Source: Candidatus Omnitrophota bacterium
GTDB lineage: Bacteria > Omnitrophota > Gorgyraeia > JAFGHF01
Assembly (NCBI GenBank): GCA_016939375.1
Contig: JAFGHF010000024.1
Location: forward strand, 9,828-73,827
Direction: 5' to 3'
Length of the DNA stretch: 64,000 nt
Made by a program: the position numbers. This document shows, one piece after another, positions 21,001-42,000 of this stretch. How positions within the stretch are numbered: the first letter of the stretch is position 1; each line of letters opens with the position of its first letter.

Positions 21001-24000
21001 AAGAGTTTTCAGAATTTAAAATCTTTAGTTTATAAAAGCGTACGGAGGATAAGATGAAACACTTAGACAGGTTGGAAAATCAGAGTATTTACATAATCCG
21101 TGAGGCATATAGCCAGTTTAAGAAAGTGGCTATGCTTTGGTCGATAGGCAAAGATTCGACCACCCTTCTTTGGTTGGCCAGAAAGGCATTTTATGGAAAG
21201 CTCCCTTTTCCGGTAATGCACCTGGATACGGGATATAAGTTCAAGGAGATCTATGAATTCAGGGATAAATATGCCAAAGAATGGGGGCTTGACTTGATCG
21301 TCAGCAAGAACCAGAAAGCGCTAGACCGGGGCGTGAGTCCGACAAAAGGAAAGCTGGAGTGTTGCACCGAGTTAAAGACAAACGCATTAAAAGAGGCTAT
21401 TGCCCAAGGCGCCTTTCGGGCCCTTTATCTGGGTATCCGCAGAGACGAACACGGCATTCGGGCAAAGGAGAGATATTTTTCACCGCGGGATGAGGATTTC
21501 GAGTGGAACTACAAAGAACAGCCACCGGAGCTCTGGGACCAATATAAGACCAAGGCAAAAGATGAGGAACACATCCGCGTGCACCCTCTGCTGGGATGGA
21601 GGGAAATAGATGTCTGGCAGTATATTAGAAGGGAGGATATTCCTATAGTAAGGCTTTATTTTGCCCAAGGCGGCAAAAGATACAGAAGCATCGGTTGCGA
21701 GACCTGCTGTAACCCTGTCGAATCCACCGCCGATACCATCGATAAAATTATTGAAGAGTTGAAGACCTCTAAGGTATCAGAAAGAAGCGGCCGGGCGCAG
21801 GATAAGGAATCGGCCTATATGATGCAAAAACTGAGATCATTGGGATATATGTGATCTTAATTCAAAATTAAAAATTGAAAATTCAAAATTGAAAATTTAA
21901 AACTGGAGATGAAAAATGGAGGAATATAAGGATGCACATTGGCGTTCACTTTTTAAAGCCTTAAGCTGGAGGATCCTGGCTACAGCCTCGACGATACTTA
22001 TAGTATATACTTTCACTCATAAGCTTGTCCTTTCTTTAGAAGTAGGCGCTGTCGAGGTAGTGGTAAAATTGATTCTCTATTACGTACACGAGCGGGCCTG
22101 GTTGTCTGTTCCTTTGGGTAGCAAGATACACCCGCTTTCGTCTCTGCCAGTTAAAGACGCTATAAAAGAAGAAGATATGGAAAAAATCAAAATCAAACTA
22201 AAAGAATTGGGGTACTTAGATGAAATCTGACGTAAATGCACTTAAATTCGTTATAGTCGGTCATGTAGACCACGGTAAGTCCACTCTTATCGGCAGACTT
22301 TTCTTTGATACCGATTCCCTGTCAGCGGATAAAATGGAAGAGGTAAAGGCGGCCTCCAAAGACCTGGGCCGCCAGACAGAGTTTGCTTTTCTGCTGGACC
22401 ATTTGCGTGAAGAAAGGGAACAGGGCATTACCATAGATACGGCACAGACATTTTTTAAGACCAAAAAGAGGGAGTATGTGATCATCGATGCCCCCGGACA
22501 TCGTGAGTTTGTGAAAAATATGATAACCGGGGCCTCGCAGGCAGAGGCAGCCGTTTTAATAATCGATGTCGACCAGGGGGTGCAGGAACAGACCAGGCGC
22601 CATGCATATATTTTGGCTATGCTGGGTTTAGAACAGGTGATAGTCATCCTCAATAAAATGGATTTGGTGGGTTTTAGCAAAGATAAGTTTGAGCAAGTCC
22701 GGACTGAGGCCGAGAAGTTTTTACAGTCCATCAATATCAAGGCCAAGTTTTATATCCCTGTATCAGCGATCAAGGGAGATAATGTGGCCAAAAGATCAAA
22801 AAATATGAAATGGTATGACGGCTTGACTGTATTGGAGAGCCTGGATGCTTTGCAAAATAGGGTTTCTGCGGAGAATAAAGCGCCGGTTATGCCTGTGCAG
22901 GATATCTATAAAATCGGTGAAAAAAGGATCATTGCCGGCAGGATTGAAGCTGGAGTAATCAAGAAAGGACAAAAAGTGAAGATACTGCCAAGCGGAGAAG
23001 ACACAGAGGTCAAGTCTATCGAGAAGTTTTTGCAGAAGACCGATAAGTCCGTTGCCGGAGAAAGTACCGGTATTACTACCAGCACACCCGCCTTTTTGGA
23101 GCGAGGAAATATTATCTGTGCAGGGGATGGGCAACCAACCTTAACCGATTCTTTTAGGGCAAATATCTTTTGGATGGCCAGAGAGAACTTTGACAAAGAG
23201 CAGAAGATCACCTTAAGATGTGCTACCCAGGAGATATCCTGCAAGATCGAAAAAATAGTCAAAAGGATGGATTCTTCCACCCTGGAAGTCATCGAAGAAG
23301 ATGCCGCCACATTAAAACCGTTAGAAGTGGGAGAGGTCCTGATCAAGACCAAGCGTGCGGTTGCCATCAAACGCTTTAATGACCTGGAAGAGCTAGGCAG
23401 ATTTGTCTTGGTAAAGAATGAAAATACCTGTGCCGGTGGGATTATTACGGAGGTGTAATCTTGGTGTTTGATAATAGCAGAAGACGTACTTTTGTATTGG
23501 GGTTAGACGGGGTGCCCTATTCTTTTCTCAAACAGGCCTTTGCCAAGGGACAAATGCCGCACCTGGCTAAAATGGCAGGGCAAGCGGGCTTGAAAAAAAT
23601 AAACTCCGTATATCCTACTATCTCATCAGTGGCCTGGACCAGCTATATGACCGGAGTAAACCCTGCTGAGCATAATATTTTTGGATTTGTTAATAGGAAT
23701 GCTGACCCTTTTAGGATAACTATACCCACTGCCCAAGACAGGAAAGCAGAGACGATATGGAGCGCGCTTTCCCGGCAAGGCAAGCGGGTCATAGTAATTA
23801 ATGTACCTTTGACCTATCCTCCCGAAGAAGTAAACGGCATACTGGCTTCCGGTTTCTTGTGTACAGATATTGAAAAATGTGCCTACCCAGCGAGCTTTAA
23901 TAGATATCTAAAAGAAAAAGACTATATTATCGATGTTGATGCCTGGCTGGCGCGCAGTAACAAAAAGGAAGAATTTATGCAGCAGTTGCACCAGGCCATG

Positions 24001-39000: not shown

Positions 39001-42000
39001 CTTTTAGCGGGAAAGAAGAAGAAGAGATAAAACAGAAACTCAGCGATCTGGGCTACTTGTAGGCCAAAAGGAGGAGCGGATAGAGATGATAATAATCGTT
39101 TTACCGGCTTATAATGAGAAAAGAGAGATACCGATTTTGCTAAAGCGCATCGATGGTTTTATGAAGACCAACAGGCTTGACTATAAGGTAATAGCGGTCA
39201 ATGACGGCAGTACCGATGGCACGCGAAAGGTAATAGATGACCTAGCGAATCTCTATCCCCTTACTAAAGTGCATTTTGAGAAAAACCTGGGGGTAGGTTC
39301 GGTAGTAAGAACAGGTCTTAAATTGGCGATGGAAATGTCCACAGACGACGAAGACGTGATAGTCACGATGGACGCAGACAATACCCATGACCCCAAGATC
39401 ATAAAGATGATATTACGCAAAATCGAAGAGGGTTATGAAGTGGTTGTGCCCTCGTACTTCTGCTCTGGGGGGATGTTGATAGGCCTCCCCTTTAGAAAGT
39501 ACTTTTTCTCAAGGGTAGCGAATTTTCTCTATCAGGTATTGTTCCCGGTCAAGGGCCTAAGGAGTTATACGGGGTTTTATAAAGGTTACAAGGCAGGGGC
39601 CCTTAAGCTGGCTATGGAAAAATTTAAGGATAAGCTTGTCGAGTCCCAGGGTTTTGCGGCTATGGCGGAACTCTTGATAAAGCTCAGAAGAACCCCTCTT
39701 TTTATCGCCGAGGTCCCCATGATATTGAGATATGACTACAAAGGGGAGAAGAGCAAGCTTAAAGTCTTACCCACGATCAAAGAGCATTTAAGGGTGATCT
39801 CTAAAAACCTTTTCACAAGAGATATAATGACGTGATTATTGCAAGGGTATTGTAGGCTATGATAAATCTGAGTCAGAGAAAAACATTTTTTTGGATAATC
39901 CTATCTTTAGTCATCATCTTAAGGCTTATAAGCCTTGATAAAGGTATAGCCTACGATGAAAAACAGACCTTTTTATACGCAAAAGCGCCGTTTGCGGAGA
40001 AAATGGAACTCATCAGGCACCATTTTAGCAATCCTCCTTTGACGGTCAGCCTGCTTTACTTTTGGATGTTGCCCAGCCAAAATGAGGTTTGGGTCAGGTT
40101 ATATTTTGTACTCTTTGGCGTGGGTCTGTGTATTTTAGTCTATCTTATAGGCAAGGAGTATTTAGGGGATGAATTTGGTCTTTTATCTTTTGCCTTGGCG
40201 GGGTTTTCTCCGCTTTTGATCTGGGCCTCCCAGTATATAAGAGGTTATGTGGATTCGGCTTTCTGGATAGTTTTATCCAGCTTTTTCTTCCTGAAGATGA
40301 TAAAAGGCAGATATACTAGATCGGTCTGCGCCGGATATATCATCTCTTCTGCCTTGGCCTTATATACTTTTTATTTTACCGCTTTGATTTTATTATCCCA
40401 AGGATTATATCTGTTGATATTTTGGTGGCGGGATAGGCCGTTGCTTAAGAGATGGTTATCTTGCACTTGCCTGACGGGGCTTTTGTTTGCCCCCTGGGTC
40501 CCTGTGGCTTTCTCACAGATCGCAATAGTCACAGGCGTGCGTCAGTTGCCATTTAAGGGCTTTCAGATATTGGGTTTGCCAATCGGCATGTTTCTGCGTA
40601 ATTTGATGACCATGGTGGGCATGGAGCCCTACTTTTTATCGGCCGGTGCCAGTGAGATCTTAGATAACAAATTTTTATTATTAAACGTTATTTTGATACT
40701 TTTGATCTTTGTGGCTGTGCTAATATTAGGCTGCCTTTCCTTAAAAAGACTAAACAAGGGGGGACGGGTAGACTTTTGGTTTTTTGTATTTCTTTCGCTG
40801 GGGCCCGTTATTCTGGCCAATACCCTTGGCCGGATGCTGTCTTTGTCGGCCAACGCAAAATATCTAGTGGCCCCTCAGGCGATGTTTATATACTTTTTTG
40901 CCGCGGTTATATACTATTTTATTTTGCAGAGGAAAAAGAAATATGCCTATATCTTTTGTCTATGTCTATTATCCTTATTCCTGTTGCGGCTGCCCAGTGC
41001 CTATACCGCCGAATTTGATTTTAAGGGTGCCCATAGCTTTATTTGCGCAGAATCGCAAGGAAAAGGCTGTATATTCGTCTTTAAAAAAAGATTTGATGAA
41101 TTCGCATTGCCGGCGGTCGATTTAGGGGAATTTTTCCAAAGGGATAAGGCAAGCGGCGAATATCTGTCTTTGCCAGATATAAAAGCTAAAGAGTTAAAAG
41201 AGAGAGCCAGCGGTTGCGCTCGTATTTACCTTTACCTCAGCTTTGGCAGAGATAAAGTTTTCGGGGCTAATAAAGCCGCCAAGGCCTTTTTTAATAGAAA
41301 CTTTGAGCTGGATAAGAAAAAGACTTTTAGGAATATAGAAGTCCTATCATATAAGAAAAGGTGATATGAATATTCATAAACTCAACCCCATTATTTTTAT
41401 ATTAGCCATTAGCCTTTTTTTAAACTTGTTTGGCATAGGCTGGGGTTTGCCTGACAGATGGCATCCTGATGAACACGTAGCCCAGACGCTGCAAATGATC
41501 GGGGAAAGGAAGATAGTCGACTTTTATCACCCCCCATTTTATAAGATTGTTCTAGCTGGGTATATGGTACCGTTTTTGGCCTATTTTGTGCTTACTCAAG
41601 GCCAAGCTGGCGTCAAGCTTGTGAGTTCTTGTTCCTCCTGGATAGGACTTGTCAGGACCTTGCCCGATTTTGCCACAAATATTTATCTTGTGGCCAGGTC
41701 GATGTCAGCGCTATTTGCCGTAGCCTGCGTGTATTTAACACACAGGATAGGAAAGGCCATCTATAATGAAAAAGTGGGTCTTTTCTCCGCCATGACTTTA
41801 GCTGCTACAATGGGATTTGTGGGCCGCAGCCATCTGGCTAAAGAAGGTATCTTTGTTACCTTTTTGGTGCTCCTGGTGCTGCTTCTCTGTATATCAAGTT
41901 TTCAAACCAAGGAGTGGGGCAGGGCCAAAAAATATTTTCTCCTGGCTTGCCTCTTTGGGGGATTTTCCCTGGCCGCTAAATATGACGGCGGAATCGCTGT

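Follow-up and report, generated by a model that had tools for sequence, protein, structure and literature searches.

Alkaline-phosphatase-superfamily proteins and an ATP sulfurylase in an Omnitrophota glycan locus: a candidate sulfation module

Organization of the locus

The window analysed here is a stretch of 64,000 nucleotides from Candidatus Omnitrophota bacterium (positions 9,828 to 73,827 of the forward strand of contig JAFGHF010000024.1, GenBank assembly GCA_016939375.1). It contains about 60 genes in one array on the + strand, with a GC content of approximately 43%. Pfam scans of all open reading frames (ORFs) of at least 120 aa, together with a 104-aa ORF encoding a DUF2061 protein, identify a Wzx-dependent glycan locus in the window. 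Within it lie genes for both subunits of an ATP sulfurylase, CysD and CysN, and for four proteins of the alkaline phosphatase (AlkP) superfamily, referred to as AP1 to AP4. A first-pass annotation of the same DNA had proposed that these genes form a non-canonical glycan sulfation system lacking an adenosine 5'-phosphosulfate (APS) kinase, and its ORF positions, all on the + strand, agree with those given below. The features are as follows.

21054..21854, + strand: CysD, catalytic subunit of GTP-coupled ATP sulfurylase, 266 aa, ending ...QKLRSLGYM (PF01507, E 1.4e-43)
21916..22230, + strand: DUF2061 small membrane protein, 104 aa, with the LGY tail ...IKLKELGYLDEI (PF09834, E 2.9e-17)
22220..23458, + strand: CysN, GTPase subunit of ATP sulfurylase, 412 aa (GTP_EFTU, D2 and C domains)
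23461..24738, + strand: AP1, soluble PF01663 protein resembling nucleotide pyrophosphatases/phosphodiesterases (NPP) and PhnA, Ser55 nucleophile, no tail (PF01663, E 1.7e-38)
29256..30476, + strand: AP2, soluble sulfatase-like protein, 406 aa, motif T53-A-P-S-L, LGY tail (PF00884, E 3e-42, and SGSH_C)
30463..31956, + strand: Wzx-type flippase (Polysacc_synt_3, Polysacc_synt and MurJ matches)
33627..34547, + strand: AP3, compact AlkP-fold protein, 306 aa, ending ...EKLKALGYLE (sub-threshold PF00884 match, E 0.0019)
37392..39062, + strand: AP4, soluble PF01663 protein, 556 aa, Thr nucleophile, full metal site, tail ...EEEEIKQKLSDLGYL (PF01663, E 6e-43)

Sulfate activation genes

The first gene of the group encodes CysD, which is 43% identical to CysD of E. 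coli and passes the curated CysD subfamily model of NCBIfam (NF003587, 365.6 bits against a cutoff of 195). The models NF009214 and TIGR02039 set stricter equivalog cutoffs that this CysD does not reach, in keeping with its shortened 266-aa form. The DUF2061 protein encoded between cysD and cysN has one hydrophobic segment. The CysN protein contains the P-loop GHVDHGKST, is 37% identical to its E. coli counterpart and passes the CysN model TIGR02034 (360.7 bits, cutoff 336.1), with no APS kinase domain fused to it. The two proteins are predicted from their family membership to have ATP sulfurylase activity. The curated cutoffs bear out the earlier description of a cysD/cysN pair in which the 412-aa CysN lacks a fused CysC.

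That description had also held that the 64 kb encode neither an APS kinase nor a canonical sulfotransferase, and Pfam, P-loop, six-frame hidden Markov model (HMM) and tblastn searches were uniformly null on this point. No PF01583 (APS kinase) match occurs among the Pfam-scanned window ORFs of at least 120 aa. Apart from those in an ABC ATPase (2830) and CysN (22259), the P-loop pattern matches of the window fall outside kinase-like genes. When E. coli CysC and two CysC proteins from the related cassettes described below were compared with the window by tblastn, nothing was returned at E ≤ 10 except one tail-to-tail match, and neither Pfam scans nor tblastn (E up to 10) located a Sat-type sulfurylase in the 64 kb. 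No Sulfotransfer_1/3 match was present in window ORFs of at least 120 aa, and a five-sulfotransferase HMM run with filters off on six-frame ORFs of at least 60 aa had a best window match at E 0.65. A canonical sulfotransferase was found neither in the window nor in any of about 26 related loci of the CysDN type. Pfam scans of the window also showed no cysH, cysJI or other assimilation genes.

Three ORFs without Pfam matches were considered as possible sites of a hidden kinase or sulfotransferase and were ruled out, since none resembles CysC or a sulfotransferase. The ORF at 16597-17802 has an N-terminal membrane helix and a GDSL-like motif, 'LFLGDSW', and those at 26915-28615 and 39859-41364 encode multi-pass membrane proteins, the latter with a weak Agl23 match.

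The four AlkP-superfamily proteins

The AP1 gene starts 2 bp past the cysN stop. Both AP1 (133.5 bits) and AP4 (148.1 bits) score far above the PF01663 cutoff of 23. The invariant residues of the AP1 family are D16, S55/S56, D207, H211, D256, H257 and H397, so all seven NPP metal and nucleophile positions are kept and the two-metal site is full. Residue S55 aligns with the PhnA nucleophile T64. The AlphaFold model of AP1 (mean confidence, pLDDT, 92.2) was matched by Foldseek to PhnA and to AMP-binding ENPPs (ENPP1) at TM 0.6-0.69.

AP2 carries T53-A-P-S-L at the position aligned with the C/S-x-P-x-R formylglycine motif of solved S1 sulfatases. The invariant residues of its family are D12, R15, D17, T53, D234 and H235, together with L396, G400 and Y401 in the tail. 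The closest named relatives are soluble haloarchaeal 'sulfatases' with 32-37% identity, which have the same VDCLRAD and T-x-P-S-L motifs and the same tail. The 3' end of the AP2 gene overlaps the start of the Wzx flippase gene. A metagenomic bacterium and Salinarchaeum have glycan loci in which AP2 homologs adjoin Wzx; the AP2-Wzx adjacency appears in locus L001, and a sulfatase-like gene lies beside a flippase in L003. The flippase probably marks the sulfatase-like step as one acting on a cytoplasmic lipid-linked glycan before export.

AP3 is assigned through a profile-profile comparison with the AP2 family (hhalign, 98.3% probability, E 1.6e-14). It displays the constellation D53/R56/D58, T80 and D239/H240, of which D-x-x-R-x-D, the Thr and TADHGE are common to the AP2 family; T80 lies at the position aligned to the sulfatase nucleophile. 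The AlphaFold model of AP3 has a pLDDT of 91.7, and its best Foldseek matches were MCR-1, EptC and EptA, followed by sulfatases.

AP4 is approximately 30% identical to AP1 and bears the signature D-T-P-W-D-H-D-H-H. The general form of this signature, D-[ST]-x-W-D-H-D-H-H, is present in all PF01663 subfamilies of the cassette loci. The AP4 family comprises 5,361 representative clusters at E ≤ 1e-30.

No 19-residue window with a hydrophobicity of 1.6 or more is present in AP1 to AP4, and there are no transmembrane segments. Since AP1, AP2 and AP4 also have a metal-binding Asp within the first 16 residues, these three are predicted to be soluble cytoplasmic proteins. NCBIfam gave just weak matches to EptA/MCR, PhnA and sulfatases. 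The first-pass view of these proteins was upheld in each respect: Pfam, profile-profile and AlphaFold results agree on four soluble AlkP-superfamily members with intact Ser/Thr-nucleophile metal sites, AP2 has T53-A-P-S-L in place of the formylglycine motif, and a cytoplasmic location fits all four. The Pfam search and structure predictions that it had suggested gave strong matches for AP1 and AP4 (PF01663) and AP2 (PF00884), a sub-threshold one for AP3, and AlkP-fold matches for both modelled proteins.

Conservation of the AP1 cassette

Orthologs of AP1 were identified in a scan of species-representative genomes, 80 loci were fetched and their 1,072 ORFs were clustered. AP1 orthologs occur in at least 259 species, are 43-72% identical and measure about 425-450 aa. 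Their hosts include Omnitrophota, WOR-3, Planctomycetia, Clostridia, Halanaerobiales, Caulobacteraceae, Nitrospirota, Thermodesulfobacteriota, Chloroflexota, Calditrichota, KSB1 and Zixibacteria, among others. The 64 loci with at least 2.5 kb of sequence upstream of AP1 were treated as informative; there, the upstream genes are CysDN without CysC in 23, CysC without CysDN in 26 and neither in 15. The co-occurrence of AlkP genes with sulfate activation, which the first-pass annotation had proposed to check in other genomes, is thus seen for AP1 in 49 of the 64. Across all 80 loci the recurrent AP1 neighbours are a PF01663 paralog (in most), APS kinase (30) and CysD with CysN (24), and the next commonest family, a GT4 glycosyltransferase or an epimerase, is found in 15 loci only. 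The clustering is not attributable to chance: dozens of unrelated genomes share this gene grouping.

Two cassette types are distinguished. The CysDN type, to which the window belongs, has the order CysD-CysN-[TauE/SafE permease]-AP1-[tailed AP4-like]. In these cassettes CysD is 70-82% identical across phyla, and no CysC is present within 10 kb in about 23-26 loci from at least eight phyla. The CysC type has the order [small RHH-like protein]-AP4core-Sat-CysC-AP1, where RHH denotes ribbon-helix-helix. Pfam confirms PUA_2 with ATP-sulfurylase as well as APS_kinase in the CysC-type cassettes, and the kinase motifs are intact. Approximately 30 cassettes have an intact CysC directly upstream of the AP1 ortholog (with a gap of 32 bp in L059), and Sat lies in the fetched stretch of 15. 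The AP1 proteins of the two types differ at one conserved position (R94 vs M) and in a C-terminal extension.

Six loci encode a fusion of Sat with a PF01663 domain. These proteins of 864-881 aa consist of PUA_2 and ATP-sulfurylase at the N-terminus and an AP4-related AlkP domain at the C-terminus.

L053, 90-2735: Sat-AlkP fusion
L057, 5102-7711: Sat-AlkP fusion
L071, 6633-9275: Sat-AlkP fusion
L081, 6644-9238: Sat-AlkP fusion
L086, 5156-7789: Sat-AlkP fusion
L088, 6596-9232: Sat-AlkP fusion

The AP4core paralog never occurs without Sat, and in some loci the two form a single polypeptide. Several divergent AlkP paralogs, up to four, are encoded per locus. The cassette also occurs in Calderihabitans maritimus, a gut Dorea-like bacterium and a metagenome-assembled genome (MAG) of Caulobacteraceae, where two of the three independent neighbourhoods are natural-product-like clusters and not glycan loci; precomputed Pfam calls for these three show no PF01583 and no sulfotransferase family.

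About 10 CysDN-type loci have a TauE/SafE permease between cysN and AP1 (9198-9965 in L028, and the same position in L009, L020, L021, L023, L025, L026 and L031), which may transport sulfate or sulfite for the cassette; the membrane protein in the window is instead DUF2061, encoded between cysD and cysN. In the Anaerolineae loci L070, L079, L080 and L082, AP1 is found without sulfate-activation genes and with a RACo-type corrinoid reductive activator on its 5' side, and its function there may differ. A subgroup of approximately 390 aa, provisionally labelled 'AP?', was rejected as AlkP because it is the Sat-type ATP sulfurylase, drawn in through the fusion proteins. MalK-like ABC ATPases near some AP1 genes were likewise rejected as sulfate importers, since they belong either to Wzt/ABC-2 glycan exporters or to the generic sugar-type ATPases.

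A shared C-terminal tail

A tail of about 20 aa (...ERLxxLGY[LIV]) is common to the C-termini of CysD, cassette CysC, DUF2061 and AP2/AP3/AP4-type proteins. Only five real + strand genes of the window encode LGY within five residues of the stop, namely CysD, DUF2061, AP2 (...SLGYFDESL), AP3 (...ALGYLE) and AP4 (...DLGYL). The corresponding DNA is located as follows.

~21807-21851, + strand: CysD tail
~22168-22227, + strand: DUF2061 tail
~30408-30473, + strand: AP2 tail
~34497-34544, + strand: AP3 tail
39000..39059, + strand: AP4 tail

The tail of the CysC in locus L040 matches that of AP4 with 60% identity over 20 aa (tblastn, E 0.004), and this is the sole window region matched by cassette CysC. 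Among the 1,072 ORFs of the 80 loci, 92 are tailed, and 86 of these fall into the following families: CysC (28/30), CysD (22/24), AP4-type proteins (22), the small RHH-like family f14 (7/7), DUF2061 (5/5), AP2-like proteins (3) and AP1 (1). As families, AP1, CysN, Sat and the Sat-associated AP4core clade carry no tail. The CysC of E. coli is tail-less and its CysD ends in MELKKRQGYF. Of the 150 best AP4-family representatives, 116 are tailed, with the consensus [YLF][ST]x[ED]EEEx[IV]xERL[RK]xLGY[LIV]. In the AlphaFold model of AP3 the tail forms a helix (292-301, pLDDT ~83) after a low-confidence linker. Many AP3-family homologs (P0243, P0244, P0249, P0264, P0267, P0278, P0327 and others) replace ...LGY[LI] with a second variant, ...[IV]xx[KR][IV]xxLKxxG[KR][LI], and other members of the family end right after a conserved 'EVPWLVIEK' strand.

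The possibility that the tail is a CysDN-specific docking tag copied from CysD was rejected, as nearly every AP2-family protein has the tail, apparently exported members and members fused to tetratricopeptide repeats (TPR) among them; the huge AP4 family and the CysC tails in loci without CysDN also rule it out. Its role may therefore differ among families, and it may be structural in the AP2 family because exported-looking members keep LGY.

Several small proteins of 74-107 aa consist of a short N-terminal domain (RHH-like by eye, no Pfam match) and an LGY tail. They head CysC-type cassettes at L048 3835-4074, L039 7708-7932, L040 6970-7290, L041 650-883, L049 5616-5867, L050 3805-4044 and L067 144-467. 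A 76-aa tailed protein (L092 8732-8962) is encoded just upstream of an AP3-like gene. In cassette CysC proteins (L036, L037, L040, L045, L047 and others) the native last helix already ends in ...KLEELGYL or ...RYI; helix-LGY is repeated after a short acidic linker, so the tail looks like a tandem copy of the C-terminal helix of the kinase. In Calderihabitans a short ORF (L004 14869-15201) has a tail (EEEQVKNRLKALGYLE) that hardly differs from the one encoded by the AP4-like gene 3 kb on its 5' side, and looks like a duplicated remnant.

Comparison with known systems

The closest functional parallel comes from Halobacterium salinarum, in which Agl30 (VNG1056C, membrane-associated) and Agl31 (VNG1057C, soluble) have an AlkP-like core and resemble sulfatases (Zaretsky et al., mBio 2025, PMC11980604). 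Both were shown genetically to be needed for sulfation of the Halobacterium N-glycan, and either one alone led to sulfation of the Haloferax volcanii pentasaccharide when expressed there; the sulfate donor is not discussed (PMC11980604). Their C-termini, read from the Strep-tag in-frame cloning primers in Table 1 of the same paper, are ...HLEDLGYL for Agl30 and ...LEELGYT for Agl31. The VNG1063H primer encodes KELGYIE, a probable tail, and the primers of four neighbouring genes have no such ending. Judged from these termini and the published descriptions, Agl30 and Agl31 are like AP2 to AP4 in their AlkP-like core, their place in a glycan-assembly cluster and their LGY C-termini. Agl31 is also soluble and cytoplasmic like the AP proteins, and both archaeal proteins act on the lipid-linked glycan before flipping. 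They differ in belonging to archaeal dolichol-linked N-glycosylation, with no cysDN or sat-cysC linkage reported and no PF01663 partner described. When agl30 and agl31 primers were compared with metagenome contigs, one had no match and the other had 18 chance matches (44-63% GC) with no second primer site.

The NodP/NodQ and NodH system resembles the window in having a dedicated ATP sulfurylase copy, formed by CysD/CysN homologs, in a glycan-modification locus. NodQ carries an APS kinase domain, and the Sulfotransfer_1/3 enzymes of canonical bacterial glycan sulfation have a P-loop-like fold that binds 3'-phosphoadenosine 5'-phosphosulfate (PAPS). In contrast, the window has no kinase and no PAPS-sulfotransferase fold in its 64 kb.

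EptA, EptC, MCR-1 and LtaS are AlkP-fold enzymes with a metal-activated Thr nucleophile and a covalent intermediate, and they provide a mechanistic template for transfer as opposed to hydrolysis. They are membrane-anchored and periplasmic and move phospho-groups from lipid donors, whereas AP1 to AP4 are soluble, cytoplasmic and linked to sulfate activation. AP2 aligns with the S1 formylglycine sulfatases but lacks their motif and a signal peptide, and no SPASM-type maturase is found among the Pfam matches of window ORFs. Compared with the NPP/PhnA proteins of PF01663, AP1 has Ser for the Thr nucleophile, lacks the Asn of 'TFPNH' and has a conserved Trp after the nucleophile. Its cytoplasmic sulfate-activation context is also unlike the phosphonate or nucleotide scavenging of NPP/PhnA. 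A conceptual parallel, which would apply if APS or a sulfated tail tyrosine were the donor, exists with arylsulfate sulfotransferase (ASST), whose ping-pong sulfuryl transfer runs through a covalent sulfo-enzyme and needs no PAPS. ASST itself is a periplasmic beta-propeller protein of unrelated fold, in which phenolic sulfate donors give rise to a sulfo-histidine intermediate.

Proposed sulfation module and alternative explanations

The interpretation given somewhat more credence than doubt is that this part of the window would be a dedicated cytoplasmic sulfation module with AlkP-fold transferases, serving a Wzx-dependent surface-glycan pathway. The AP proteins are probably sulfate-adding because the only tested relatives of the cassette are the two archaeal glycan sulfotransferases, and the occurrence of several divergent AlkP paralogs in one locus, as is typical of tailoring enzymes, supports a sulfotransferase role. 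In the proposed pathway CysD and CysN would make APS from sulfate, ATP and GTP, and the activated sulfate would pass to the soluble AlkP enzymes. With a metal-activated Ser/Thr as nucleophile, these would carry out a covalent ping-pong reaction, with a sulfo-enzyme formed first and a sugar hydroxyl attacked next, mirroring phospho-group transfer by phosphoethanolamine transferases and LtaS. AP1, which is tail-less, highly conserved and adjoins the last activation enzyme, most likely consumes the sulfonucleotide first. The divergent tailed proteins AP4, AP2 and AP3 are most likely regiospecific glycan sulfotransferases that act on the lipid-linked glycan just before flipping. Docking of the components into a single complex is the most likely role of the helix-LGY tail, and DUF2061 may anchor that complex to the membrane.

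Several observations weigh against such a module. No sulfated glycan is known from the organism, and the PF01663-type members are assigned by sequence and context. AP2 homologs occur in glycan loci without cysDN within 10 kb, and numerous proteins of the AP2 family retain LGY although they appear to be exported. In L090 and L091, from an Aminicenantes genome and another MAG, AP3-like genes directly adjoin canonical Sulfotransfer_1/3 genes, and four or five CysC-type AP1 loci, L063, L064, L071 and L075 among them, encode canonical sulfotransferases as well. Furthermore, the two-metal NPP/PhnA-like site of AP1 is by nature one for phosphoryl transfer, and AP1 could therefore be a hydrolase of a nucleotide, of 3'-phosphoadenosine 5'-phosphate (PAP) or of pyrophosphate.

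These last points lead to an explanation regarded as unlikely, though well short of negligible: the AP proteins may be accessory hydrolases (PAP 3'-phosphatase, pyrophosphatase, or APS/PAPS phosphodiesterase) of a conventional PAPS pathway with cysC and sulfotransferases elsewhere. The NPP/PhnA-type nucleotide-enzyme fold of AP1 and the canonical sulfotransferases near AP3-like and CysC-type genes speak for this, the high conservation of AP1 across unrelated pathways suggests a common small substrate, and the restriction of AP4core to Sat loci, sometimes as a fusion, would fit a partner that removes pyrophosphate. However, no canonical sulfotransferase was found in the window or the CysDN-type loci, and CysDN-type cassettes, which lack CysC, would generate no PAP in need of removal. 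Housekeeping hydrolysis, for which cells already have pyrophosphatase and CysQ, would hardly call for as many as four divergent AlkP paralogs in a locus, and Agl30 or Agl31 alone confers sulfation on Haloferax (PMC11980604). A much more remote explanation is that the proteins transfer phosphoethanolamine or phosphoglycerol substituents, or are cytoplasmic sulfatases, with cysDN serving general sulfur assimilation. The AP3 model is closest to the phosphoethanolamine transferases MCR-1, EptC and EptA, Thr/Ser nucleophiles replace formylglycine, and the weak NCBIfam matches point the same way. Known transferases of this kind are membrane-anchored with periplasmic domains, unlike the soluble, cytoplasmic AP1 to AP4, and the window has no cysH, cysJI or other assimilation gene. 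The linkage and fusion to sulfate-activation enzymes and the shared tail would also be left unexplained.

Activated sulfate may reach the favoured sulfation module as APS, or as PAPS from a cysC at another place in the genome. The ordinary-donor case, a serious contender that falls somewhat short of an even chance, holds that the same AlkP-fold sulfotransferases use PAPS from a cysC outside the window, the missing kinase being an accident of gene placement. PAPS may be the donor because CysC sits upstream of AP1 orthologs with the same active-site signature. This kinase is catalytically intact in the roughly 30 related cassettes, half of which show Sat, and the single conserved AP1 position that differs between cassette types suggests one shared substrate. 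The window is also 64 kb of a 113-kb contig of a MAG. Against an outside kinase are the lack of CysC within 10 kb of the CysDN-type loci in at least eight phyla, the cross-phylum identity of CysD, as expected of a laterally moving self-sufficient cassette, and the Sat-AlkP fusions, which tie the AlkP domain to the APS-forming step and not to the kinase. A self-contained, PAPS-independent pathway is considered rather improbable. In this scheme APS made by CysDN would sulfate Ser55 of AP1 with release of AMP, and the tails would dock CysD, DUF2061, AP4, AP2 and AP3. As a variant, the invariant tail tyrosine might serve as an aryl-sulfate swinging arm for the sulfatase-like enzymes.

The first-pass proposal of an AlkP-fold sulfotransferase is therefore retained in part. 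A tie to sulfation is very likely and transferases are plausible, given the 49 of 64 loci, the six fusions, the tail and Agl30/Agl31. Its description of the system as non-canonical stands to the extent that the window encodes no APS kinase, but dependence on APS is unproven when so many related cassettes carry an intact CysC. Its own alternative, hydrolases serving a conventional sulfotransferase, is kept alive by the AP3-like genes beside canonical sulfotransferases.

Genomic context

The glycan genes of the window include nucleotide-sugar dehydrogenases, epimerases, aminotransferases and acetyltransferases. Glycosyltransferases of families GT1, GT2 and GT4 are also encoded, along with GT-C-like membrane proteins. 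Further genes specify methyltransferases, a B12 radical-SAM enzyme and, just upstream of cysD, a carbamoyltransferase paired with an SxtJ-like protein.

17799..20052, + strand: carbamoyltransferase (605 aa; PF02543/PF16861) and SxtJ-like membrane protein (PF19588)

Carbamoyltransferase genes also occur near the CysDN/AP1 or CysC/AP1 cassette in L005, L007, L019, L029, L034, L046, L051 and L075, the last of which has an SxtJ-like gene as well. This recurrence raises the possibility of a combined carbamoyl and sulfate (sulfocarbamoyl-like) decoration.

Directly 5' of cysD, the ORF at 20415-21035 encodes a protein of 206 aa. It begins with a winged-helix/MarR-like domain, has a further region similar to the C-terminal domain of sugar C-methyltransferases, and could regulate the proposed sulfation module. 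Three successive large multi-pass membrane proteins (39859-44493) follow AP4 and a GT2; one has the weak Agl23 match and two match PMT_2 (ArnT-like GT-C), which suggests periplasmic glycan transfer. On the 5' side of the glycan genes are two adjoining GAF-GGDEF diguanylate cyclases (3865-6548) and an LptD-like outer-membrane protein (6676-8817).

Significance

Almost every biological O-sulfation known so far relies on PAPS and on a single sulfotransferase fold. The concept of an AlkP-fold sulfotransferase is already published for archaea (PMC11980604). A literature search on COG3379/PF01663 in sulfation, on PAPS-independent or AlkP-family sulfotransferases and on DUF2061 returned no description of the cassette. 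The PF01663-centred cassette of bacteria appears to be undescribed, as do the fusions to Sat and the tail shared across families, Agl30/Agl31 included.

The cassette wires AlkP-fold proteins to sulfate activation across many bacterial phyla through operon linkage, fusion and a shared tail. CysD, CysN, AP1 and a tailed paralog form a concrete minimal system that can be purified, and its biochemistry is directly testable. In clusters for glycans and natural products, a sulfation role would alter the annotation of genes now labelled 'sulfatase' or 'alkaline phosphatase family', and would help to predict sulfated glycans and metabolites in uncultured bacteria. If the PAPS-independent pathway were true, these proteins would constitute a second, mechanistically distinct class of sulfotransferases with thousands of members and an assembly code of their own.

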